A stretch of 30,952 nucleotides of DNA, from positions 1-30,952 of the forward strand of contig JAZDJU010000108.1 of the NCBI GenBank assembly GCA_043803685.1. The letters are read 5' to 3'. Source of the stretch: Candidatus Omnitrophota bacterium. Its GTDB lineage: Bacteria > Omnitrophota > Omnitrophia > Omnitrophales > Aquincolibacteriaceae. The notes under the pieces were generated by a model. That model saw only the letters and a list, made by a program, of their open reading frames with translations, did not search any database and was not told the DNA's origin. A program made the position numbers and the translations under genes. Shown in pieces: positions 1-24,650 of the stretch (within the stretch, counting starts at the first letter, position 1; each line of letters starts with the position of its first letter).

Positions 1-696
1 ATTACAGGAGGCACCAGCCGGCTTGGACAGGCGTTCGTTCGGAAAGCGGCCGGGCAAGGGGCCCGTGTTTTTTTTACTTACTTTAGATCTCTCGAAACCG
101 CCCAAGAACTCGAAAAGGGCGGCGCGAAAGGGTTTCTCCTCGATCTAGCCAACTCCCGGGACATCGATGCGTTCGCGGAAGCCTTCAAAGGAGAAAACGA
201 GCAACTGGACGTCCTTATTCATAATGCCGCCGCGACCGCGGACGCGCTCATTGAAAAAATGTCCGAAAAAGAATGGGACGATGTTTTGCGTGTCAATCTC
301 AAGGCGCCATTTTATCTGACCCAGAAACTCCTGCCCCTTCTCCTTATGAAGAAGCCAAGCAAGGTTTTCACTCTGGTCAGCCGCGCGGGTTTGAGCGGTC
401 TTGCCGGAGCCGCGAACTACGCCGCGTCCAAGGGAGGCCTGATCGCCATGACCAAGACTTTAGCCAGAGAGCTCGGTCGCAAAAAGATCCTCGTGAATGC
501 CATCAATCCCGGATTTATGCGATCCGCTATGACCGCCGACGTTCCCCAGGATGTTCTTCAGAGAAGTCTGGAAGACAGCCCTCTCAAGACCTTTTCGGAC
601 CCCGAAGAGGTCGCGGATTTTCTCCTCTTTCTCTCCTCAGACCAGGTGCGCCAGGTGACGGGACAAGTGGTTCATTTTGAATCCCGGCCGTTCTAG
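1..696 (+). CDS. fabG: SDR-family 3-oxoacyl-ACP reductase (FabG-like), 5'-truncated by the window edge
   Basis: Frame 1 is open from base 1 (ITGGTSRLG dinucleotide-binding motif, HNAA, YAASKGG catalytic YxxxK, VNAINPGF, VTGQ). It sits next to fabF and ends in TAG at 694-696. Confidence 0.8.
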   Translation: MTGGTSRLGQAFVRKAAGQGARVFFTYFRSLETAQELEKGGAKGFLLDLANSRDIDAFAEAFKGENEQLDVLIHNAAATADALIEKMSEKEWDDVLRVNLKAPFYLTQKLLPLLLMKKPSKVFTLVSRAGLSGLAGAANYAASKGGLIAMTKTLARELGRKKILVNAINPGFMRSAMTADVPQDVLQRSLEDSPLKTFSDPEEVADFLLFLSSDQVRQVTGQVVHFESRPF

Positions 697-778
697 CCTT
701 GTCTTTGTTTCTGTTCTTAAATGGCGACAAGGCTTGCCCCAATTCAACTTCGTTGAAATTGACAGGAATTGGGACTAA
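693..778. repeat. Diverged two-hairpin relative of the 154-bp element, at the fabG stop codon
   Basis: CTAG-[CCTTGTC-22nt-GACAAGG]-CTTG-[CCCCAATT-22nt-AATTGGGA]-CTAA. The first loop matches the reverse-complemented unit-3 loop of the 154-bp element at 15/22 positions. Confidence 0.6.
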
Positions 779-786
779 GATAGAAT
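759..786 (+). promoter_or_regulatory. sigma70-type promoter for fabF-bioFAD
   Basis: TTGACA (759-764), 16-bp spacer, TAGAAT (781-786), 35 bp before the fabF ATG. It is overlapped by the inverted repeat ACAGGAA-N21-TTCCTGT (762-796). Confidence 0.6.
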
Positions 787-821
787 TTCTTCCTGTTTGA
801 TACCTGAAGGGACCCTCAGAG

Positions 822-2027
822 ATGAAGCGACGCGTGGTAGTGACGGGCATGGGCGTTCTTTCCCCGGTAGGGAATACGATCGCGGAATTCCGTGAAAATC
901 TTAAAAAAGGGATTTCCGGGAAGGAAAACACGTCCCATTCCACCGTGGAAGGGCACAAGTTCCCGCCGGTATTTCCTCTCAGGGGCTTCAATCCCCACTC
1001 TTACGGAACGCATCTTCTGGACCCTTTCATCCAATACGCCGTGGCTGCGGCAGAACAGGCCGTGGCGGACGCGCAGTTTGATATGAAGGCCGTGGACCCT
1101 TACGCCGTGGCGCTTTCTGTCAGCTCGAGTAAAGGAGGCGTTCACAGCCTCGGCCGCTTGAAGGAGCGGTTCCTCCGAAAACCGAGCGCGATCTTGGGCG
1201 CCAGAATGTTCACAAGCGCGATCCCGAACTTTGCGGACCAGTGGATCGCAAGACGTATGAAGATCCAGGGGCCGGCCAAGTGTTATGTGGCCGCGTGCGC
1301 GACTGGGACCGTGGCTATTGCTCAAGGGTTTCGCATGGTTTCCGAAGGCGACGCGGAATACTGTCTCGCTGGAGCCACGGACGCTTCGATCACCCCTCTC
1401 ATGTTAGGGGGTTATAAGAACATGAAGGCGCTTGCGGCCCAAGAGATCCGCCCGTTCGATAAAAGACGCGATGGATTTTTGGTGGGCGAAGGGGCCGGCG
1501 TGGTTTTCCTCGAAACGCTCGAGAGCGCAACAGCTCGCGGGGCAAGGATCTACGGCGAGATCCTTGAGGCTGCCCACGGGCAGGATAGCAAACAGCCGAT
1601 CCATTTTGACCTTAACGAACATGCTTTGTCGTACACGCTACAGGTTCTTTTTAAACGGGCCGGGATCACGCCTCGAGAGATCGACTACATGAATCTCCAC
1701 GGGACAGGCACCCGGCATGGCGACCTTTACGAAACGCTCGAGCTCAAAGGAGCTCTCGGCGAACAGGCTTATAAGATCCCCATGAGCTCGACCAAGGGCG
1801 CGACGGGACACATGCTAGGCGCGACCGGCGCCATTGAGATCATCGCCACGCTTCTCGGGATTCACGAAGGTTTCGTCCCGCCGACCGTGGGTCTTGAGGA
1901 AAAAGATCCCGCGTGCGATTTGGATTACACGCCGGGGAAAATGAGACAAAAGACAATAACAAGTGCAGTCAAGGTCTCCATGGGTTTTGGCGGTCAGGTC
2001 GCCGCTGTTCTTTTAAGAAAAGTCTGA
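822..2027 (+). CDS. fabF: beta-ketoacyl-ACP synthase II (FabF-like, divergent)
   Basis: RRVVVTGMG start; Cys-His-His triad in AACATG, LHGTGT and TGHMLGA; RPFDKRRDGF; C-terminal SMGFGG. Confidence 0.85.
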   Translation: MKRRVVVTGMGVLSPVGNTIAEFRENLKKGISGKENTSHSTVEGHKFPPVFPLRGFNPHSYGTHLLDPFIQYAVAAAEQAVADAQFDMKAVDPYAVALSVSSSKGGVHSLGRLKERFLRKPSAILGARMFTSAIPNFADQWIARRMKIQGPAKCYVAACATGTVAIAQGFRMVSEGDAEYCLAGATDASITPLMLGGYKNMKALAAQEIRPFDKRRDGFLVGEGAGVVFLETLESATARGARIYGEILEAAHGQDSKQPIHFDLNEHALSYTLQVLFKRAGITPREIDYMNLHGTGTRHGDLYETLELKGALGEQAYKIPMSSTKGATGHMLGATGAIEIIATLLGIHEGFVPPTVGLEEKDPACDLDYTPGKMRQKTITSAVKVSMGFGGQVAAVLLRKV

Positions 2028-2055
2028 CTTTTAGACGGAGAGGCGGAGCAAAACA

Positions 2056-3237
2056 GTGGCAAAGCGCAAATGCGAAAGAATGAAAAACTTTTATTCACAA
2101 GAACTCGAATCCTTAAAAGAGAAGAATCTTTATCGTCGTTTTCGCGTTCTGGAAGAACATGAAGGAACGCGCGCGATCTTCGAGGGACGGAAGATCCTGC
2201 TTTTTTGTAGCAATGATTATCTGGGGCTCAGCCGGCATCCCCGCGTCATTGGGGCCGCTCAAAGAGCGCTCAAAACGCACGGCACCGGCGCCGGAGCGGC
2301 GCGTCTTATCTCAGGGACAACAGAAGCGCACGTGGCCCTTGAAAAAAAACTGGCCCAAACCAAGGGAAAAGAAAGCGCGCTCGTCTTCGCGACCGGCTTT
2401 CTCGCGAATCTCGGCATTCTGACCGCCTTTGCCGGCGAGAAGGACGTGATCATTATGGATAAACTTTGTCACGCCTCCTTGATCGATGGCGCCCGGCTTT
2501 CAAAGGCGGAACTTCGCGTTTTTCCTCATAAGAATTATAAAAAGTGCGAAGAGATCCTTCGAAATTCCCGTAGCGCTCGCCGGAGGATCCTTGTAACGGA
2601 AACGGTTTTTAGCATGGACGGCGACCGGGCGGACTTGAAAGAACTTGTCCGTCTCAAAGAAAAACACAAGGCGCTCCTCGTGATCGACGACGCGCATGGC
2701 ACAGGCGTTTTAGGAGCGCACGGACGCGGCGCCGCGGCGGTGGAAGGCCTTTCAAAAAAGATCGATATTATTATGGGGACGCTGTCCAAAGCCATCGGGG
2801 GACTCGGGGGGTTTGTTGCCGCGGACAAACTCATGACGGATTATCTAGTGAATTTCGCGCGACCTTTTATTTTTGCGACAGCACTCCCGCCTGTTCTCTG
2901 CGAAGCCGCGCGCGAAGCTTTATGTGTTATCGAGGAAGAGCCGGCATTAAGAGAAAAGCTCCTGGAGAACATCTGCGGCGTTTACCAAGGGCTTACTTCC
3001 GCGGGGCTTTCGATCGGAAAGCCTGAATCCGCGATCCTTCCGGTGATGGTGGGCGACGAAGGCAAAGCCACGAGGGTTTTCGAGCGACTTCTTGCCCAGG
3101 GAATTTTTATTCCCGCGGTGCGTTTCCCGACCGTTCCTAAAGGGAAAGCGCGACTTCGAGTGACCGTTTCTGCGGCGCACACGTCTCAGGACATCGCCGC
3201 ATTGACGAAGGCTTTTGCAAAAGCGATGAAGGAGTGA
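2056..3237 (+). CDS. bioF: 8-amino-7-oxononanoate synthase
   Basis: FCSNDYLGL, HASLIDG, FSMDGD, DDAHG, GTLSKA (PLP lysine), PTVPKGKARLR. GTG start with GGAG RBS; alternative ATG at 2080. Confidence 0.93.
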   Translation: MAKRKCERMKNFYSQELESLKEKNLYRRFRVLEEHEGTRAIFEGRKILLFCSNDYLGLSRHPRVIGAAQRALKTHGTGAGAARLISGTTEAHVALEKKLAQTKGKESALVFATGFLANLGILTAFAGEKDVIIMDKLCHASLIDGARLSKAELRVFPHKNYKKCEEILRNSRSARRRILVTETVFSMDGDRADLKELVRLKEKHKALLVIDDAHGTGVLGAHGRGAAAVEGLSKKIDIIMGTLSKAIGGLGGFVAADKLMTDYLVNFARPFIFATALPPVLCEAAREALCVIEEEPALREKLLENICGVYQGLTSAGLSIGKPESAILPVMVGDEGKATRVFERLLAQGIFIPAVRFPTVPKGKARLRVTVSAAHTSQDIAALTKAFAKAMKE

Positions 3238-3244
3238 TCCTCAG

Positions 3245-4606
3245 ATGCGAAAAAAAGAAACGAGAACAGAGCGATGGATCGCCAAAGACCGGAAATATCT
3301 CTGGCACCCATTCACTCAAATGCGGGATTGGCAGACGGACGAATTTCTCGTGATCGAAAGAGGGGAAGGCTGTTACCTGATCGACACCGCGGGGCGCCGC
3401 TACCTGGACGGCGTGTCATCGCTTTGGTGCAACGTCCACGGGCACCGCGTGAAAGAGCTGGACCGGGCGATCGTAAAACAGATCCGAAAGATATCTCATA
3501 GTACCCTTCTGGGGCTGACGCATCCCACGGCGATCGAGCTGGCTGAAAAGCTCATTAAGATCGCGCCGAAAGGTCTCACGCGCGTTTTCTACTCGGATTC
3601 CGGGTCCGAGGCCGTGGAGGTCGCGCTCAAAATGGCCTTTCAATACTGGGCCCAAAAAGGGCATCCTCAAAAAAAGAAATTCGTAAAACTTGTAAACTCC
3701 TATCACGGCGATACGTTGGGCTCCGTGAGCGTCGGAGGGATCGACCTGTTCCATCAGATCTATAAGCCGCTTCTCTTTAAGACGCTCGCGATCCCGTCTC
3801 CGTATCGGTTTCGCTGGAAGACGGGAAGCGATCCGGAAGAGGTGAAAAGAGAAGCGCTTGGGGCTATGGAAAAAGTTCTGAAAGAACATCATGGAGAACT
3901 TGCGGCGCTCGTGATGGAACCTCTGATGCAAGGAGCCGCGGGGATGATCGACCAACCGGCGGGATACATTTCCCGTGCCAGGGAGCTGACACGAAAGTAT
4001 AATACGCTCCTGATCCTTGACGAGGTCGCGACAGGGTTCGGACGGACCGGAAAAATGTTCGCCGCGGACCACGAACGCGTGACCCCGGATATCATGGCCG
4101 TCGCCAAGGGCATTACAGGCGGCTATCTTCCTCTGGCGGCAACGCTCGCGACCGAGGAGGTTTATGGGGCGTTTTTGGGCCGATACGAGGAGTTCAAAAC
4201 TTTTTTTCACGGGCACACTTACACGGCGAACCCATTGGCTTGCGCCGTGGCGATCGCGAATCTCGAGATCTTCGAAAAGGAAAAAACGCTCAAGAAATTG
4301 CAGCCCAAGATCCGGCTCATGGAACGGCGGCTCAAGGGCTTTTACAAGCTTCGCCATGTTGGGGACATCCGTCAGCGAGGCATGATGATCGGGATCGAGC
4401 TTGTTCGCGACAAAAGAACGAAAGCGGCTTTTGAGCCGAAAGAAAAGATCGGCGTTCGCGTGATCGAACGGGCACGCGCGAAGGGAGCCATTCTCCGACC
4501 GCTAGGGCCCGTGATCGTGCTTATGCCGCCTTTGGCGATGACAGCCAAAGAGCTCGAGCGATTGTTGGACATTACTTATGAATCCATAAAGGAAGCGACG
4601 GAATGA
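3245..4606 (+). CDS. bioA: Adenosylmethionine-8-amino-7-oxononanoate aminotransferase
   Basis: WHPFTQM, DGVSSLW, DSGSEAVEVALK, YHGDTLG, DEVATGFGRTG, AKGITGGY, FFHGHTY. Confidence 0.95.
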   Translation: MRKKETRTERWIAKDRKYLWHPFTQMRDWQTDEFLVIERGEGCYLIDTAGRRYLDGVSSLWCNVHGHRVKELDRAIVKQIRKISHSTLLGLTHPTAIELAEKLIKIAPKGLTRVFYSDSGSEAVEVALKMAFQYWAQKGHPQKKKFVKLVNSYHGDTLGSVSVGGIDLFHQIYKPLLFKTLAIPSPYRFRWKTGSDPEEVKREALGAMEKVLKEHHGELAALVMEPLMQGAAGMIDQPAGYISRARELTRKYNTLLILDEVATGFGRTGKMFAADHERVTPDIMAVAKGITGGYLPLAATLATEEVYGAFLGRYEEFKTFFHGHTYTANPLACAVAIANLEIFEKEKTLKKLQPKIRLMERRLKGFYKLRHVGDIRQRGMMIGIELVRDKRTKAAFEPKEKIGVRVIERARAKGAILRPLGPVIVLMPPLAMTAKELERLLDITYESIKEATE

Positions 4607-4616
4607 ACATGAGCCG

Positions 4617-4690
4617 CGGGGAACGGGGAATGGGGAATGGGGAACGGAAAGATTTTTTGTCGTTACCCGTTATCCGTTTCCCGCTCTCCG
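4617..4690. repeat. Heptamer-repeat hairpin 1 (YGGGGAA x4 / TTnnCCG-like x4) between bioA and bioD
   Basis: cggggaa cggggaa tggggaa tggggaa cggaaag ... ttacccg ttatccg tttcccg ctctccg; the two arms are imperfectly complementary. Confidence 0.7.
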
Positions 4691-4709
4691 GCTTTTCGGA
4701 GAAAAGGCT

Positions 4710-5447
4710 ATGAACGCCGGGATTTTCATTACCGGAACGGACACGGATGTCGGGAAAACGGTGGTTTCTGCCGGCCTTGCGCTCGTTCTCCGGGATCGCG
4801 GGATGAAGGTCGGGATAATGAAACCTGTGGCGACCGGTTGTTATGGCGACGAGGGCCGGCTTATCTCCCAGGACGCAGCGTTTCTCATGGAAGCCGCGCA
4901 GAACGAATATCCGCCGCTCTCGAGCCCTTCGCGTTTCCGGAACGCTCTTTCGCCGAATGTCGCGGCCATGCTTGAAAAAAAGGAAGTCGATGTGCCCGGC
5001 ATCCTCAAAAGCTACCGTGAACTTCAAAAGCATTACGACTTTATGATAGTCGAAGGCATTGGCGGGCTTATGGTCCCTCTTAAAAAGGATTATTACGTCG
5101 CCAACCTTATTCGCGACATGGGTCTCCCGATCCTGATCGTGTCCTATGCCGGACTAGGCGCGATCAATCACACGTTGCTGACCGTGGACGCGGCGACGAT
5201 CCGGGGACTTACAGTACGAGGGATTATTTTCAACCGTGTTTCCGTGACCAACTACTCGCTAGCGGAACTTACCAATCCGAAAGTGATCCACGACCTGTCT
5301 GGAATTCCGATCCTTGGCAGCTTGCCCAATATCGACGGCCTCAACATGGATAATTGCCAATTTGGCAGACTCAAGGAGATCTTTCAGGAACGCATCCAAG
5401 TCGAAAAGATCCAGGGAGTTTGTACCGGCGCTACTTCCCCAAAATAA
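4710..5447 (+). CDS. bioD: Dethiobiotin synthetase
   Basis: FITGTDTDVGKT P-loop, MKPVATG, VEGIGG, LGAINHTLLT. Confidence 0.95.
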   Translation: MNAGIFITGTDTDVGKTVVSAGLALVLRDRGMKVGIMKPVATGCYGDEGRLISQDAAFLMEAAQNEYPPLSSPSRFRNALSPNVAAMLEKKEVDVPGILKSYRELQKHYDFMIVEGIGGLMVPLKKDYYVANLIRDMGLPILIVSYAGLGAINHTLLTVDAATIRGLTVRGIIFNRVSVTNYSLAELTNPKVIHDLSGIPILGSLPNIDGLNMDNCQFGRLKEIFQERIQVEKIQGVCTGATSPK

Positions 5448-5463: not shown

Positions 5464-6846
5464 TTGTCTCAACGGTCCCAATACCCATCAAGCGAAGCCG
5501 AGCCGAGATTGGGGCCGTCCGAGTTGCCATCCGGAGAGAAAAGTAAAAGACTTGGACGGAAAGTCACCGGTATCCGGCTCGAAAGAAAAAAAGATGCGAG
5601 CCTTCTTAACTGGAACCTCAAGCGCCCTTACCCGCCCGAAAAGATCCGGATGCTCGTTCCCGCCGGGACCGAACCGTGCGTCCAAGTTGAGGAGAATGTT
5701 CAGGTCGGGCAAGAGATCGCAAAACCCCGCAGCGCGGAGCGTGTCAGCCTTCACGCGGGCATGACTGGTATCGTGGAGAAGATCGCTGCCTTTCCGGGGA
5801 CGACTGGCGCAGAAAAGCAGATGATCGAGATCCGCAGATATGGAGAGCCTAAAGCGCTTCCTCTAGTGGAGACGCGCAAGGGATGGGGAGAGATCCCGTC
5901 CGAAGAACTTTCTAACATCTTTCAGCGTTCCGGACTTGTGACGACGGATCCGGCGATGGAACCTGTCCACGTGAAGCTCGGCCGGCACGCCGGGGCGCGG
6001 ACGATCATCATTAATGGCTGCGAGCCGGAACCTTATATCACTTCCGAACAAACGCTGATCACGTCCCATCCCGTGGAGATCCTGAAGGGCGCGGGGCTGC
6101 TCAAAAAAGCCATGGGCGCCGAGAAGATCGTATTCGCCCTGGAAAGTTGCAACATCGAGATGATCGAGCTCATCAAGAGCAAGATCTACTTTTTGAAGTG
6201 GGAATACGCGGAAGTCCGGACGGTGCTAGCGCTCTATCCGCAAGGACTCGAAAGCACGCTGCTTCAAGCATGGTTTCCGGGAAAAGAAGACGAGGCTGTT
6301 GTTTTTCCGGCATCCACCGCCTTTGCGGTTTACGAAGCGGTTGTCCTGCAAAAGCCTTTTTATGAAAGAGTCGTGACCGTGGGCGGCGAATGCGTGGTCG
6401 AACCGAGGAGTCTCTGGTTACCGATCGGAATCTCCTTTCAAGATGCGATCCACGCCTGCAAAGGGGTCATGCGCGAACCCCAAAGGATTTTGATGGGCGG
6501 ACCCATGGCTGGAATGGCGCAACCGACCATGGAGGTTCCCGTCACGGTTGGGACGAACGCCATTCTTGCGCTTCCCAAGGAGAGCGCGAGCGAGGGAGCA
6601 GAAATGTGGGAAGTGGCGCCATGCATCCGGTGCAATCTTTGCGTGGATCACTGTCCCGTTCTGCTTTCGCCCGCCATGATCACGATGGCTGCGGAACAAA
6701 AAGAGTTTTCGATCGCAGAGGCGTGGCATGCCGAAGCGTGCATCGAATGCGGGACCTGCGGCTATGTGTGTCCCACCAAACGACCGATGCTGAAATTGAT
6801 CCGCTCGGTCTGTCCTCCCTCAGCGCCGGTGGTGCCCCATGATTGA
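5464..6846 (+). CDS. rnfC: RnfC/RsxC-like subunit with a degenerate FMN/NADH-binding loop and two [4Fe-4S] motifs
   Basis: RnfC domain order (N-terminal barrel, INGCEPEPY, YPQGLE, RVVTVGG SLBB, MGGPMAG, CIRCNLCVDHCP and CIECGTCGYVCP). Start reassigned to TTG 5464 (AAGGA RBS at 5452) because the ORF-track start at 5314 overlaps bioD. Confidence 0.8.
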   Translation: MSQRSQYPSSEAEPRLGPSELPSGEKSKRLGRKVTGIRLERKKDASLLNWNLKRPYPPEKIRMLVPAGTEPCVQVEENVQVGQEIAKPRSAERVSLHAGMTGIVEKIAAFPGTTGAEKQMIEIRRYGEPKALPLVETRKGWGEIPSEELSNIFQRSGLVTTDPAMEPVHVKLGRHAGARTIIINGCEPEPYITSEQTLITSHPVEILKGAGLLKKAMGAEKIVFALESCNIEMIELIKSKIYFLKWEYAEVRTVLALYPQGLESTLLQAWFPGKEDEAVVFPASTAFAVYEAVVLQKPFYERVVTVGGECVVEPRSLWLPIGISFQDAIHACKGVMREPQRILMGGPMAGMAQPTMEVPVTVGTNAILALPKESASEGAEMWEVAPCIRCNLCVDHCPVLLSPAMITMAAEQKEFSIAEAWHAEACIECGTCGYVCPTKRPMLKLIRSVCPPSAPVVPHD

Positions 6847-7696
6847 AGGGGCGCTTTTTGACCGGGTGGGATTACCACCCCACATCGACGCCAAAGACTC
6901 TTTGGCTAAACGGCACTGGGGGCAACTAGCAGCGCTTGCTCCCGTTTTTATGGCCGCTTGTTTTACCGGACACGCGGAGATCTTACGCGTTCTCTTAATT
7001 TGTCTGGTGAGCGCGCTCGCGTTCGATTTCCTGGCCGCAAAAATATTTCGAAAGAAAGAAAATCTACGAAGCGGCGAAACCGTGCTCGCGGCAGCCCTCT
7101 TTTCACTTCTCTTACCTTCAAAATGTCCTGCCGAGGTCGTGATTCTTGGAATTTTCATGGCGGTCTTTGTTGCCCGCGAGTTTTTCGGGGGGACAGGTGC
7201 GTATCCACTACACCCGCTTTTTCTGGCGCGAGCGTTCTTGCAAATTTGCTTTCCCCGAACCCTGTCGGAACCGATGCTTTTGGTCGGGGACGGCAATGTT
7301 TGGATGCTTGTGGGAATGGGGCTTGGCGGCATTCTGCTTCTCAAACAGAAACAAGGCTATTGGGAAACGCCGGTCCTTTTTATGGCCACTTGTTTTTCTT
7401 GCGAGGTCCTGTTCGGGGGAAAAGAAATGACGCTTGTTTTTTTCAGCAGCGTCCTCCTGACGGGCTTTTTTCTTTTAGCGGATCCCGTTACCCTTCCGCT
7501 GACGCGCAAGGGGACGCTTCTTTTTGTTTTGGGCGCGGCTTTTTTGGGTTCGTGGCTTGATCCGAACGGATTCTCGATCCGCTCCATGAGTTACGCGATC
7601 CTAGGAATGGGACTTCTGACACCGTGGCTGGACGTCTGGTTCAAGCCCGTCTCTTACAGAGCAAAACAACATCTCAAAGCGACCTATCCGGCATGA
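6839..7696 (+). CDS. rnfD: RnfD/NqrB-like membrane subunit, shortened and lacking the FMN-attachment loop
   Basis: PPHI N-terminus, REFFGGTG, FFLLADPVTLPLT, LLTPWLD; overlaps the rnfC stop; no [S/T]GAT motif. Confidence 0.75.
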   Translation: MIEGALFDRVGLPPHIDAKDSLAKRHWGQLAALAPVFMAACFTGHAEILRVLLICLVSALAFDFLAAKIFRKKENLRSGETVLAAALFSLLLPSKCPAEVVILGIFMAVFVAREFFGGTGAYPLHPLFLARAFLQICFPRTLSEPMLLVGDGNVWMLVGMGLGGILLLKQKQGYWETPVLFMATCFSCEVLFGGKEMTLVFFSSVLLTGFFLLADPVTLPLTRKGTLLFVLGAAFLGSWLDPNGFSIRSMSYAILGMGLLTPWLDVWFKPVSYRAKQHLKATYPA

Positions 7697-7800
7697 ACAT
7701 TAAAAAAACGGCCGCAACCCTAGCGAAATATTTATTCCTGTTTCTTTTCCTGGCTTTTTTGGCCGCGATCCTTTACGGGGCGCAGAAGCTGAGGGGATGA
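7693..7800 (+). CDS. 35-aa single-TM peptide at the rnfG position (mini-RnfG anchor); not in the ORF track
   Basis: MNIKKTAATLAKYLFLFLFLAFLAAILYGAQKLRG*; ATGA overlap with the rnfD stop; basic N-terminus followed by one hydrophobic helix. Confidence 0.65.
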   Translation: MNIKKTAATLAKYLFLFLFLAFLAAILYGAQKLRG

Positions 7801-7822
7801 AAAACATGAGACGTCAGAGATC

Positions 7823-8350
7823 ATGAAGCTGCCCGAACGTCTTTTTTCAAGGATGCTTTTGGCTTATCTCCCGTTCATGGTCTACCCTTACGGCTCTTTC
7901 AGGGCTTTGGTCGCGGCGCTTTGGATTACGGCCTTCCTTTGGTTCACAGTCGCTTTCTTCTGGCTCACACGGCGTTTTTTCCCGGACCGTTCCTTAAAAC
8001 ACGCCTTTGTTCTCTGGCTCATCGTGTGGGCGCAGGCCGCGTGGACGCTCACGCGATTGCCGCCCTACTGGATCGTGAGCGTCTTTTTCCTCACGCCGGT
8101 CTCTTTTCTCGAGGATACAGCCAAGCCCGCTCATGTGCGTGTGTTTTCCAGGAAAGTACCGAGGTACTTTTTTGAGCGGGTTCTTGTCGGGATCGGCTTC
8201 GCAGGCTTTGTAGCGTTGCTGACGTTTGTCCGGGAGGTCGCGGAGAAAGGATTGGGGATCCAGGCGTTCGAGCAACCGGCCGGCATGTTATTTGTGATCG
8301 CGGCCGTCGCGTTCCTTTGGAAGAACCAACCTTATCGCGGGAAGGAATAA
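7823..8350 (+). CDS. Divergent RnfE/NqrD-like membrane protein with no cysteines
   Basis: Operon position; C-terminal GIGFAGFVALLTFVRE...QPAGMLF resembles RnfE G.GF...L.G.IRE...PPGAF; LAYLP stands at the LGLCP position. Confidence 0.55.
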   Translation: MKLPERLFSRMLLAYLPFMVYPYGSFRALVAALWITAFLWFTVAFFWLTRRFFPDRSLKHAFVLWLIVWAQAAWTLTRLPPYWIVSVFFLTPVSFLEDTAKPAHVRVFSRKVPRYFFERVLVGIGFAGFVALLTFVREVAEKGLGIQAFEQPAGMLFVIAAVAFLWKNQPYRGKE

Positions 8351-8351
8351 A

Positions 8352-8858
8352 ATGTACTTTTGGATCATCGCTTTTGGTTTCGTTCTGGCCATGCGCGGCG
8401 CAAGGCCTGCGCTTTTGCAAAGGCCCCTCGAGGGCCTAAAACATATCGGTCGTGAAAACAACGACTTCTTTTTCACCCTGAGCCTCATCCTGGCGATCTG
8501 GAACTTTGCGGCCGGCTTTGAACGGATCGAGAACGCCGTCCGGGAATACGCAATTCTGGGTTTTGGGCTTATGGCCTACCTGCTTTCCCGATACCAGAAG
8601 AAAGGGGATGTCTTTTTCCTTTCTGTTCTTGCGGGAGCTTTCATGATTAGCTTAAAACGAAGCGATATTTCACAGGCGGTCCTGTGGGCAGGCGCCGTTA
8701 GCGCAGGGGTCGCCCTTTTCCAGGGCGTTTTTCTGGGATTAAGACACCGGTTGCTCTTTTCTCGAATTCCCGAACCTTCTAAAGGATGGCCGGCCCTTTG
8801 TCTTTTGGCCGGATTTATTTCCATGGCCTTGTGGGGTTTCGTGCGCTTGGTTTTCTAA
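8352..8858 (+). CDS. Divergent RnfA/NqrE-like membrane protein
   Basis: C-terminus FLGLRHRLLFSRIPEPSKGWPALCLLAGFISMALWGF matches the RnfA pattern FAGIRERL...VP.PF.G.PI.LITAGLMSLAFMGF; GARP stands at the GLCP position. Confidence 0.65.
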   Translation: MYFWIIAFGFVLAMRGARPALLQRPLEGLKHIGRENNDFFFTLSLILAIWNFAAGFERIENAVREYAILGFGLMAYLLSRYQKKGDVFFLSVLAGAFMISLKRSDISQAVLWAGAVSAGVALFQGVFLGLRHRLLFSRIPEPSKGWPALCLLAGFISMALWGFVRLVF

Positions 8859-22997: not shown

Positions 22998-24650
22998 ATG
23001 AAGAATCGGCAAAAAAACATAGCGCAGCTTGGCAATGGATGGATCCTCATGGCCTTGGGTCTCGGGGTCCTTGGTTTTCCGGGGAATGTCTCGGCTGGGG
23101 AGGTTATCAAGTTCAAGGAGAGCGAGTCTTCCTTTTACAGCGACCTTTTCGACCAAAGCGTTTATAGCGAAGGCATCAACCAACTGGATATGGGGCGCTG
23201 GGGGAGGAAGCTTTTTGGAAAAGCGCTTCCTTCCAAGAATGTGAATATTTTTGACGAAGTCCCGGATTCCGGATTTTTCACGAACCGGCAGGGGCGCAAG
23301 AAGCTCTCACTCGAAGCTCTCGAAATGGGATATCAGGAAACTCCGGGGCCTGATCTCAAGGAGCCCTTGCAGGTCACAGCGGCCGAGCAGCGGGGGATCT
23401 ACCCCAGGTTCTGGGTTCGGGATGCGCTTGGAGATGAATACCTTCTAGAATTCGATCCTCAGGGAAATATGGAGCTTGTAACCGGAGCGGAGGCCGTCGC
23501 CAGCCGGGCCTACTATGCTTTGGGATATAACGTGCCCCAGCTTACGATCCTTTCGGTCAAGCCTGAGCAGTTCCGGGTCGCTCCCGGCGCCACCACGTGG
23601 GAAGACACGGGCTTCAAAAAGGAGCTCAGCCAAAAACGTTTTGAAGAATATCTGATGGTGTTGCCGCAGAACGCGGAAGGTCTTTACCGGGCCTCGGCAT
23701 GCAAGCTCATGAAGGGGCGCTATCGCGGGATCTTCAGCTTTGAATCCCGGAGAAAAGACGACCCAGCGGATCTGGTGAACCATCGTGACCGGCGTGAGAT
23801 ACGGGTGCTCGGGGTCTTCGCTTCCTGGCTCAATCACTTCGACCTTCGTGAAAGTGACACCCTGGATGTGTCCATGGAGGAAAACGGGCAATCCATCATA
23901 AAGCATTACCTGACTGATTTTAGCGGGGCTTTAGGCTCGACGCAGGCGGGCCCCAAGGCGCCGATGCTGGGGTATGAACACCAGATCGATTACGGCGAAA
24001 CCTTCAAGTCAATCCTGGCGCTCGGTTTTCGCGAAAAGCCCTGGCAAAAAAAGTGGCGCTTGGAAGGCAAAAAGATCAACGGGTCCCCCGCCGTGGGTTA
24101 TTTTACGAATGAGGTTTTTGACCCAGGACGGTACAAGACCCAATTTCCTTATGAGGCGTTCCGGCTCGTGACCCGCGCTGACGGACTGTGGGCCGCAAAG
24201 CTTCTGAAGAGTTTTTCTGATGAAGATATCCGGGCCATGGTAAAAGCGGGTCAATACAGCGATCCGAAAAATGAAGAGGTTCTTGTCAAAATTCTGAGCG
24301 AAAGGCGGGACAAGATCGTCCTCTTTTGGCTTTCCCGCGCCAATCCTTTGGACGCGTTCTCCTTTTCTGGAGGAAAATTGACTTTTAAGGACCTAGCCGT
24401 TGAAAGTGGCGCTGCCTCCCAAGAGGGGACGGTGTATGACGTTGAAGTGATGGCTAGTGGCGGGAAAGAAAAGATCGCTCGAAACGAAACGAAAGAGCCC
24501 GTGATCGATGTTCCGCTAGCGTGGGTGCCCGAGAATGGCGAAGCCAAGATCCTTCTTCGCGTTGAACGTAATACTTCAAAAAATCAAAGCCCCGCCGTCA
24601 CGATCTCTTTGAATGCGTCCGGCATTCAAGGGATCCAGCACGAAGATTAG
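22998..24650 (+). CDS. Secreted hypothetical protein with an atypical (HipA/PI3K-like) kinase-fold signature and degenerate catalytic residues
   Basis: Signal peptide ending VSA; RGIYPRFWVRD..G.EYLLEFD, TGAE.VASR..YALGYNVP, WLNHFDLRESDTL, YLTDFSGALG. The ORF is solid; the fold is inferred. Confidence 0.55.
   Translation: MKNRQKNIAQLGNGWILMALGLGVLGFPGNVSAGEVIKFKESESSFYSDLFDQSVYSEGINQLDMGRWGRKLFGKALPSKNVNIFDEVPDSGFFTNRQGRKKLSLEALEMGYQETPGPDLKEPLQVTAAEQRGIYPRFWVRDALGDEYLLEFDPQGNMELVTGAEAVASRAYYALGYNVPQLTILSVKPEQFRVAPGATTWEDTGFKKELSQKRFEEYLMVLPQNAEGLYRASACKLMKGRYRGIFSFESRRKDDPADLVNHRDRREIRVLGVFASWLNHFDLRESDTLDVSMEENGQSIIKHYLTDFSGALGSTQAGPKAPMLGYEHQIDYGETFKSILALGFREKPWQKKWRLEGKKINGSPAVGYFTNEVFDPGRYKTQFPYEAFRLVTRADGLWAAKLLKSFSDEDIRAMVKAGQYSDPKNEEVLVKILSERRDKIVLFWLSRANPLDAFSFSGGKLTFKDLAVESGAASQEGTVYDVEVMASGGKEKIARNETKEPVIDVPLAWVPENGEAKILLRVERNTSKNQSPAVTISLNASGIQGIQHED

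Follow-up and report, generated by a model that had tools for sequence, protein, structure and literature searches.

The contig JAZDJU010000108.1 of assembly GCA_043803685.1 (Candidatus Omnitrophota bacterium), analyzed over its 30,952 nucleotides and hereafter called the window, carries at positions 5464-8858 of the forward strand a stripped relative of the operon encoding the electron-transferring Rnf complex. Five open reading frames (ORFs), all free of internal stops and lying between bioD and pilT, are, by synteny and sequence comparison, descendants of an Rnf operon that changed in place. In standard Rnf, electrons travel from ferredoxin through RnfB, the [2Fe-2S] cluster of RnfA/E, the flavin mononucleotide (FMN) of RnfG, the FMN of RnfD, riboflavin, the RnfC clusters, and the FMN of RnfC to NAD+ (as described in PMC9588780 and PMC12174285). 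An initial annotation, made from the sequence alone, had described this redox chain as removed. That overstates the case, because the [4Fe-4S] motifs persist, as does part of the riboflavin site; judged from motif conservation, the chain is cut, and selection keeps its cytoplasm-side end, with two [4Fe-4S] clusters and probably riboflavin. Since everything before the riboflavin and after the RnfC clusters is gone, the stripped complex very likely no longer moves electrons across the membrane or pumps ions (inferred from PMC9588780, PMC12174285).

Table 1. Features of the stripped rnf locus in the window
Feature	Position	Strand	Basis and remarks
RnfC-derived protein, 460 aa	5464..6846	+	Pfam domains; TIGR01945; model; NADH/FMN pocket dismantled
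GLVTTDPAMEP replacing the Gly-rich FMN/NADH loop	5932..5964	+	Alignment to solved RnfC
Helix E234-K244 (numbering from 5467)	6166..6198	+	Conserved among stripped copies
First [4Fe-4S] motif, CxxCxxCxxxCP	6622..6657	+	75/75 stripped copies
Second [4Fe-4S] motif, CxxCxxCxxxCP	6739..6774	+	75/75 stripped copies
RnfD-derived membrane protein, 285 aa	6839..7696	+	PF03116, E 7e-43; outer FMN-threonine linker deleted
His125, at the position of A. woodii RnfD riboflavin ligand Asn123	7211..7213	+	Alignment
19-residue rest of a linker with five helices; lacks the FMN threonine and the occlusion loop	7250..7306	+	Alignment, copy counts
Asp215, equivalent of riboflavin ligand Asp248/249, kept	7481..7483	+	57/66 stripped copies
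35-aa membrane anchor, RnfG remnant	7693..7800	+	Genus-conserved; longer homologs at same position; dN/dS 0.25
Cysteine-free RnfE ortholog; AYLP in place of GxCP, VNC lost	7823..8350	+	Profile comparison
RnfA ortholog without [2Fe-2S] cysteines; C-terminal third best kept	8352..8858	+	Profile and fold

An RnfC without its NADH pocket

The RnfC-derived protein, whose inferred TTG start has AAGGA 7 nucleotides upstream, contains the Pfam domains RnfC_N, Complex1_51K, SLBB, and Fer4, that is, barrel-sandwich, NuoF-like, SLBB, and double [4Fe-4S] domains, and passes the cut-off of TIGR01945 (271.7 bits against 245.95). Its predicted model (predicted local distance difference test score [pLDDT] of 94) matches RnfC 9eri_C with a template-modeling (TM) score of 0.91, solved RnfC structures overall giving 0.90-0.91, and is nearer to RnfC than to NqrA (TM 0.70-0.73).

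The motif counts cover 77 loci in 76 genomes, which represent 43 genera and 7 families; each motif was scored only in copies spanning it, and standard operons of Omnitrophota and of further phyla served for comparison. The replacement of the Gly-rich loop by GLVTTDPAMEP and the retention of both [4Fe-4S] motifs, as read in the initial annotation, hold up in alignment and in these counts. The loop pattern G[LM]GGxxFP occurs in 2 of 75 stripped RnfC copies against 91/91 standard ones, the ECEP motif in 1/75 against 91/91, and the asparagine of NV.T in 18/75 against 90/91, while both cluster motifs are universal (75/75 stripped, 93/93 standard); stripped RnfC presumably still binds both [4Fe-4S] clusters. 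The two loop-positive copies (L061 and L062, genomes G030 and G036) come from one family, whose D, G, E, and A are stripped and whose RnfC may still bind NADH. In G030, NuoF lies beside a second NuoH.

Stripped RnfC copies share a mean identity of 40%, despite which residues have become newly fixed, at 28 positions in RnfC versus 2 in RnfD. Those variable in standard copies and fixed in stripped ones include C185 and W317 (52/60 each) and R336 and E372 (58/60 each). Residues E234, S238, and K239 of the helix listed in Table 1 are found in 57-59 of 60 stripped copies and already occur in G029 and G150, two genomes with standard operons (see below). Shared ancestry accounts for part of this fixation.

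RnfD and its riboflavin site

Aligned to 7zc6_D and 9eri_D, the RnfD-derived protein breaks at the linker that carries the FMN threonine, whose median length is 19 residues in stripped copies versus 57 in standard ones. The strict motif [ST][AGP]T[PV]L is found in 0/66 stripped copies; a looser threonine pattern yields 3-5 chance-looking matches against 75-83 of 87 in the standard set. NPA persists in 6/66 versus 87/87 and reads HPL in the window, where DPVT is kept. The loss of the threonine loop, the HPL, and the DPVT had all been noted in the initial annotation and stand; the [S/T]GAT motif it named does not, the RnfD motif being T-x-A-T-P-L and TGAT the RnfG form.

Riboflavin is probably still bound by stripped RnfD, as suggested by its two ligand positions. 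The equivalent of Asn123 of Acetobacterium woodii is H in 44, N in 10, Q in 6, and another residue in 6 of the 66 copies, and Asp together with Asn or His occupies the two sites in 49/66. The N-terminal Pro and GGxG stay conserved, and the gate phenylalanine F211 is nearly invariant. In A. woodii, terminal loops of RnfD are reported to dock onto RnfC (bioRxiv 10.1101/2024.06.21.599731); the stripped C and D presumably still pair. Against the NqrB models, stripped D scores 49-52 bits, with cut-offs of 350-414.

The window's own genome encodes a stand-alone RnfD/NqrB-family gene without rnf neighbours (L070:6464-7333, G000:C85; PF03116, 1.8e-18), which keeps NPA and has E instead of the riboflavin Asp; a similar gene occurs in G017 (L068). 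In G035, rnfC and rnfD are fused into a 680-aa ORF with pilT directly 3' (L055:4741-6783), a single-genome case and a possible assembly error.

Remnants of the membrane chain

The RnfG anchor of the window is the short end of a size series at the same position, running from homologs of 228-235 aa (no TGAT) through ~110 aa and anchors of 34-58 aa to absence. The E product matches PF02508 weakly (8.6e-4); its profile (51 rows) aligns with standard RnfE at 97.2% in hhalign over 162 columns and matches 7zc6_E at E 4.5e-10. The A product has no Pfam match, and its profile (48 rows) aligns with RnfA at 97.9% over the last 71 columns and does not match the RnfE profile. The best fold for the A model (pLDDT 90) is RnfA 8ahx_A (Z 13.3, root-mean-square deviation 2.7, 158 residues aligned), followed by NqrE and RnfE; Foldseek alone gave no match for A at E<=0.001, yet RnfA/NqrE took ranks 1-6. 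Standard RnfA and RnfE copies show little or no variation at the [2Fe-2S] ligand cysteines, and the single Cys of the A product lies outside the ligand positions.

No rnfB is present at the locus, and RnfB, G, E, and A of G029 used as tblastn queries found nothing at E<1e-4 in the window's genome, which is 91% complete. A standard rnf operon was not found elsewhere in the assembly, where the second PF03116 match is the stand-alone gene mentioned above. ApbE was detected in 11/76 genomes of the order, G029 included, and in 0/16 genus genomes searched; a search of the window's genome likewise gave none. Seven loci run from D directly to pilT or trxA, lacking E and A and keeping C and D. The initial annotation had thus correctly read five intact ORFs in C-D-G-E-A order, an RnfG reduced to a transmembrane anchor, an E without Cys and an A without the ligand cysteines, a missing rnfB, and the kinship of 7823-8858 with RnfE/RnfA.

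Descent in place and selection

The closest named database relatives of the window are Omnitrophota records. D was found in 19/19 genus relatives and in 36/41 genomes searched, and the RnfC profile matched 71 of the 76 genomes of the order, with stripped RnfC in 70/75 genomes besides the window's. Across the order the gene run bioA-bioD-(mnmA-larE)-C-D-(G)-E-A-(trxA)-pilT-polA recurs (the names larE and mnmA are presumptive, resting on our own labelling plus Pfam). G029, the sole genome of the 76 with strong RnfA/E matches, has a standard rnfCDGEAB operon at the same locus, which is why we regard the stripped form as having descended in place. In G150, from the sister order, a standard operon lies beside trxA and pilT. 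A quick RnfC tree (79 rows) contains a branch, with a Shimodaira-Hasegawa-like approximate likelihood ratio test (SH-aLRT) support of 99, that separates the 52 stripped copies from G029 and G150; together with the synteny of G029, this points to an origin inside this class. In the pilT tree, G029 is near the base, and the stripped genome G034 falls weakly outside G029 (support 88). Judging from these trees, the stripped form likely arose once, and possibly twice. A functional tie to the biotin genes or pilT was considered and dropped, because identical neighbours border the standard operon of G029, and genomic position alone thus carries little information.

We estimated Nei-Gojobori ratios of nonsynonymous to synonymous substitution rates (dN/dS) over up to 18 genus genomes, excluding G013 as too distant. 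Median values were 0.14 for C, 0.17 for D, 0.25 for G, 0.12 for E, and 0.25 for A, against 0.10 for bioA, 0.075 for bioD, 0.06 for pilT, and 0.08 for polA. The synonymous rate was high (median dS 1.1-1.4), and pairs with dS <1 yielded similar ratios. Two observations point the other way: in G007, A is broken across two reading frames, and several rows of the RnfC profile search appear to carry a stop within the match. The stripped genes are under purifying selection, and we discarded the pseudogene reading given ratios far below 1 and invariant cysteines. The suggestion in the initial annotation that coordinated loss with intact frames reflects something other than random decay therefore agrees with ratios of 0.12-0.25 and with motif losses and synteny shared across the order.

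The layout of the locus varies. At 18 loci of the window's family, a DsbA-like gene with one to three domains bearing CxxC motifs lies between rnfC and rnfD (for example L052:6528-7274 and L067:6635-8974); the window locus has no such gene, and the genome of the window encodes a DsbA-like gene away from the rnf locus (L225:448-1637, G000:C72), next to a small membrane protein that we take to be DoxX/MauE-like. The rnfC gene is apart from rnfD in L185 (7.6 kb), and in L163, L167, and L177 D lies outside the stretch retrieved. Two named Omnitrophota records (L074, L075) have a standard-motif rnfC-D followed by rnfB, with G, E, and A non-adjacent.

Affinities to Rnf, Na+-NQR, and partial systems

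The stripped complex resembles Rnf (rnfCDGEAB; PDB 7ZC6, 9ERI, 8AHX) in gene order, in the orthology of five subunits, in both RnfC [4Fe-4S] motifs, in how C and A are predicted to fold (TM 0.91 and Z 13.3, respectively), and in the kept riboflavin Asp. It differs in having no RnfB, no RnfG flavin domain with TGAT, no RnfD FMN threonine, none of the four [2Fe-2S] cysteines of RnfA/E, no RnfC NADH/FMN loop, and no ApbE in the 16/16 genus genomes. Na+-NQR, an NADH:quinone oxidoreductase that translocates Na+, is proposed to have arisen from rnfCDGEA after the loss of rnfB (PMC4014512) and likewise has an RnfC homolog without FMN/NADH binding, NqrA. However, NqrA lost the clusters, the membrane chain of NQR is whole, and NqrF was added, whereas here the clusters are kept and the membrane chain is gone. 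Moreover, none of the loci examined showed an NqrF-like gene (in the window, pilT follows A directly, with no intervening gene), and the quinone-binding N-terminal helices are absent. By the sequence evidence, the stripped complex lies outside Nqr and departs from Rnf in having neither RnfB nor the membrane cluster and in the loss of three flavin sites.

The non-canonical Rnf of Treponema pallidum, tp0153-tp0147 (PMC4436053), similarly has identifiable RnfC and RnfD, barely recognizable other subunits, and no flavinylation motif; as described there, it is set apart by belonging to another phylum, keeping a flavin transferase, and being proposed as a working pump. The NQR/RNF-like partial systems (Meheust et al., bioRxiv 10.1101/2021.01.07.425746) also keep half of the Rnf/Nqr path, but the half described is the outward arm, flavinylated and joined to an NqrF-like domain with ApbE nearby, in contrast to the inner Fe-S end without flavinylation seen here. 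We found no account of a stripped Rnf in Omnitrophota in the literature covered (mostly open-access texts and part of the supplements); PMC8542988 lists Rnf in other Omnitrophota, without motif analysis.

Possible functions of the stripped complex

Loss of the Rnf sites goes together with menaquinone synthesis and complex I. In a sample of 151 genomes of the phylum, 66 of them from the order, strong UbiA-family matches occur in 64/66 order genomes and strong NuoH matches in 63/66. G029 and both sister-order genomes, which have standard Rnf, lack strong UbiA-family matches and NuoH matches; in G034, G035, and G079 both are present, and strong NuoH occurs in 0/61 genomes with standard RnfA/E. 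Many genomes of the order have two NuoH types. The window's genome encodes futalosine menaquinone genes, pyruvate:ferredoxin oxidoreductase, a small ferredoxin, ribH, two NADH-dependent [FeFe] hydrogenases, and an 11-subunit complex I (nuoABCDIHJKLMN, no nuoEFG; L222:849-11457, G000:C10). The absence of a soluble ferredoxin, considered as a reason to keep RnfC, was dropped in view of the small ferredoxin gene. Omnitrophia are described as respiratory and Rnf is assigned to acetogenic classes in PMC10066038.

The reading that we favour, tentatively, is that RnfC and RnfD form a non-pumping wire on the cytoplasm side linking ferredoxin and menaquinone. Electrons from ferredoxin would enter the two RnfC [4Fe-4S] clusters and be handed to the putative RnfD riboflavin and then to menaquinone; the donor, the acceptor, and the direction are guesses, and G, E, and A would be structural relics. 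In favour of this reading are the universal cluster motifs, the Asp plus Asn or His at the riboflavin ligand positions in 49/66 copies, the conserved N-terminal Pro and GGxG of RnfD, the residues newly fixed in RnfC, and the co-occurrence with menaquinone synthesis and complex I. The kept parts form one continuous stretch of the known chain, and they place two clusters next to a probable riboflavin, the cofactor that in Nqr passes electrons to quinone (PMC12174285). In Rnf, this riboflavin is given as 11.7 A from an RnfC cluster (PMC9588780). The 7 loci without E and A and the C-D fusion of G035 mark C and D as the core.

Several points weigh against the ferredoxin-menaquinone wire. The riboflavin site is eroding, with Asn in just 10/66 copies, Asp lost in 9/66, and the DxSAxxTG stretch lost, and in A. 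woodii N123A or D249A, both affecting residues that bind riboflavin, is reported to abolish Rnf (bioRxiv 10.1101/2024.06.21.599731). The quinone pocket of NqrB is made by N-terminal helices that RnfD does not have (per PMC12174285), and stripped D begins at the same point as RnfD, without helices of the NqrB type. Complex I could conserve the energy that would be lost if electrons passed from ferredoxin to quinone without pumping. The 18 complex-I genomes outside the order without RnfD indicate that quinone respiration can do without the module, the link to quinone rests on one or two evolutionary events, and cytochrome bd was not found in the window's genome. Finally, RnfC is missing from 5/76 order genomes, 3 of those tested also being without RnfD.

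Among the alternatives, a membrane-anchored Fe-S sensor of redox state or oxygen, or a scaffold, in which the new RnfC surface would bind a partner without turnover, is unlikely but has the most in its favour: the clusters are invariant while every flavin site erodes, E234, S238, K239, C309, R336, P338, and E372 are newly or strongly fixed, and NqrA is presented as a catalytically dead RnfC kept for structure (PMC4014512). NqrA lost its clusters, however, whereas stripped RnfC retains them, and the loci examined, with their standard-operon neighbours, contain no regulator or signalling domain. Less probable is a tethered 2x[4Fe-4S] carrier that would feed another enzyme, such as the 11-subunit complex I, with riboflavin incidental and D an anchor. 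The nuo operon of the window's genome indeed has no input module, strong NuoH accompanies the stripped operon in most order genomes (63/66), and the riboflavin ligands vary while the clusters are constant; but a soluble ferredoxin exists, complex I occurs outside the order without any RnfD, G053 has a stripped operon and no strong NuoH, and no gene linkage to nuo was seen. That the repurposed machine is an ion conduit, one of the functions put forward in the initial annotation, is weakened for a route through E and A by the 7 loci that drop them and keep C and D. A conduit through RnfD, which has the fold of ammonium/urea transporters and might have been opened by loss of the linker and occlusion loop, perhaps gated by Fe-S, appears improbable. 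PMC12174285 and PMC9588780 give accounts of the related fold and of the occlusion loop, and the linker is indeed down to a median of 19 residues; against this, the F211 gate is nearly invariant, simulations for A. woodii are reported to have found RnfD dry and not Na+-conducting (bioRxiv 10.1101/2024.06.21.599731), and D gained 2 newly fixed positions versus 28 in C.

We also think it quite improbable that the operon is a vestige in slow decay, retained through weak constraints such as folding, insertion into the membrane, or its place in a housekeeping run. Its dN/dS is up to ~4 times that of bioA, bioD, pilT, and polA, G shrinks, E and A are gone at 7 loci, and C is missing from 5/76 genomes with A split in G007; yet the ratios stay well short of 1, and at 40% identity eight cysteines do not vary and further residues have become fixed. 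Moreover, all 25 of the 25 RnfA/E-less genomes outside the order, 18 with complex I among them, lack RnfD above the cut-off, which argues that unused operons get deleted. The DsbA-like CxxC gene between C and D at 18 loci raises the idea that the stripped complex oxidizes or reduces a periplasmic protein of the DsbA type, in place of DsbB or VKOR. This is very improbable, for the outer flavins, required for crossing the membrane, have been lost, VKOR occurs in 17/76 genomes with no clear pattern (several of them with DsbA loci), and the window's locus has no DsbA-like gene; a thiol relay to DsbA was dropped, as no Cys is common to D, E, or A in the 18 loci. A still-working ferredoxin:NAD+ pump with non-covalent flavins, an idea raised for Treponema in PMC4436053 and compatible with all tested folds being intact, is close to refuted by the sequence: RnfG lacks a soluble domain, there are neither [2Fe-2S] cysteines nor RnfB nor ApbE, and removal of such cofactors is reported to abolish activity in A. 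woodii (bioRxiv 10.1101/2024.06.21.599731).

The ferredoxin-menaquinone wire has an evolutionary counterpart, possible though doubtful, in which it would represent a second way, in mirror image, of getting from Rnf to quinone chemistry: as the ancestor of the order gained menaquinone and complex I, Rnf would have shed its transmembrane loop and NADH site and become a ferredoxin:menaquinone oxidoreductase, built from the two RnfC clusters and the RnfD riboflavin, with a new partner surface on RnfC. Under this mirror-image scenario, living genomes show the steps, from the standard operon through a flavin-less full-length RnfG, an anchor only, and C-D only to a C-D fusion.

Implications

Because the TIGR01945 cut-off is passed, annotation pipelines would report Rnf in genomes that are very likely unable to run it. 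The order holds a graded dismantling of Rnf at one locus alongside a shift to quinone respiration and offers a present-day parallel to the origin of Na+-NQR after rnfB loss proposed in PMC4014512. The stripped operons amount to natural cofactor deletions, and the minimal C-D pair could show what riboflavin and the RnfC clusters do alone; whether an RnfD without its FMN loop conducts ions also bears on the debate over the site of Na+ movement in Rnf/Nqr.

Other features of the window

A promoter and terminator scan gave counts like those of shuffled sequences (2 vs 2.4 and 11 vs 9.6). A 550-aa ORF that matches nothing in Pfam or NCBIfam lies at 22998-24650, downstream of an Omp85-family gene. 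At 1-5447, fabG-like and fabF-like genes stand immediately upstream of bioF-bioA-bioD, an arrangement that suggests a dedicated biotin-precursor route.

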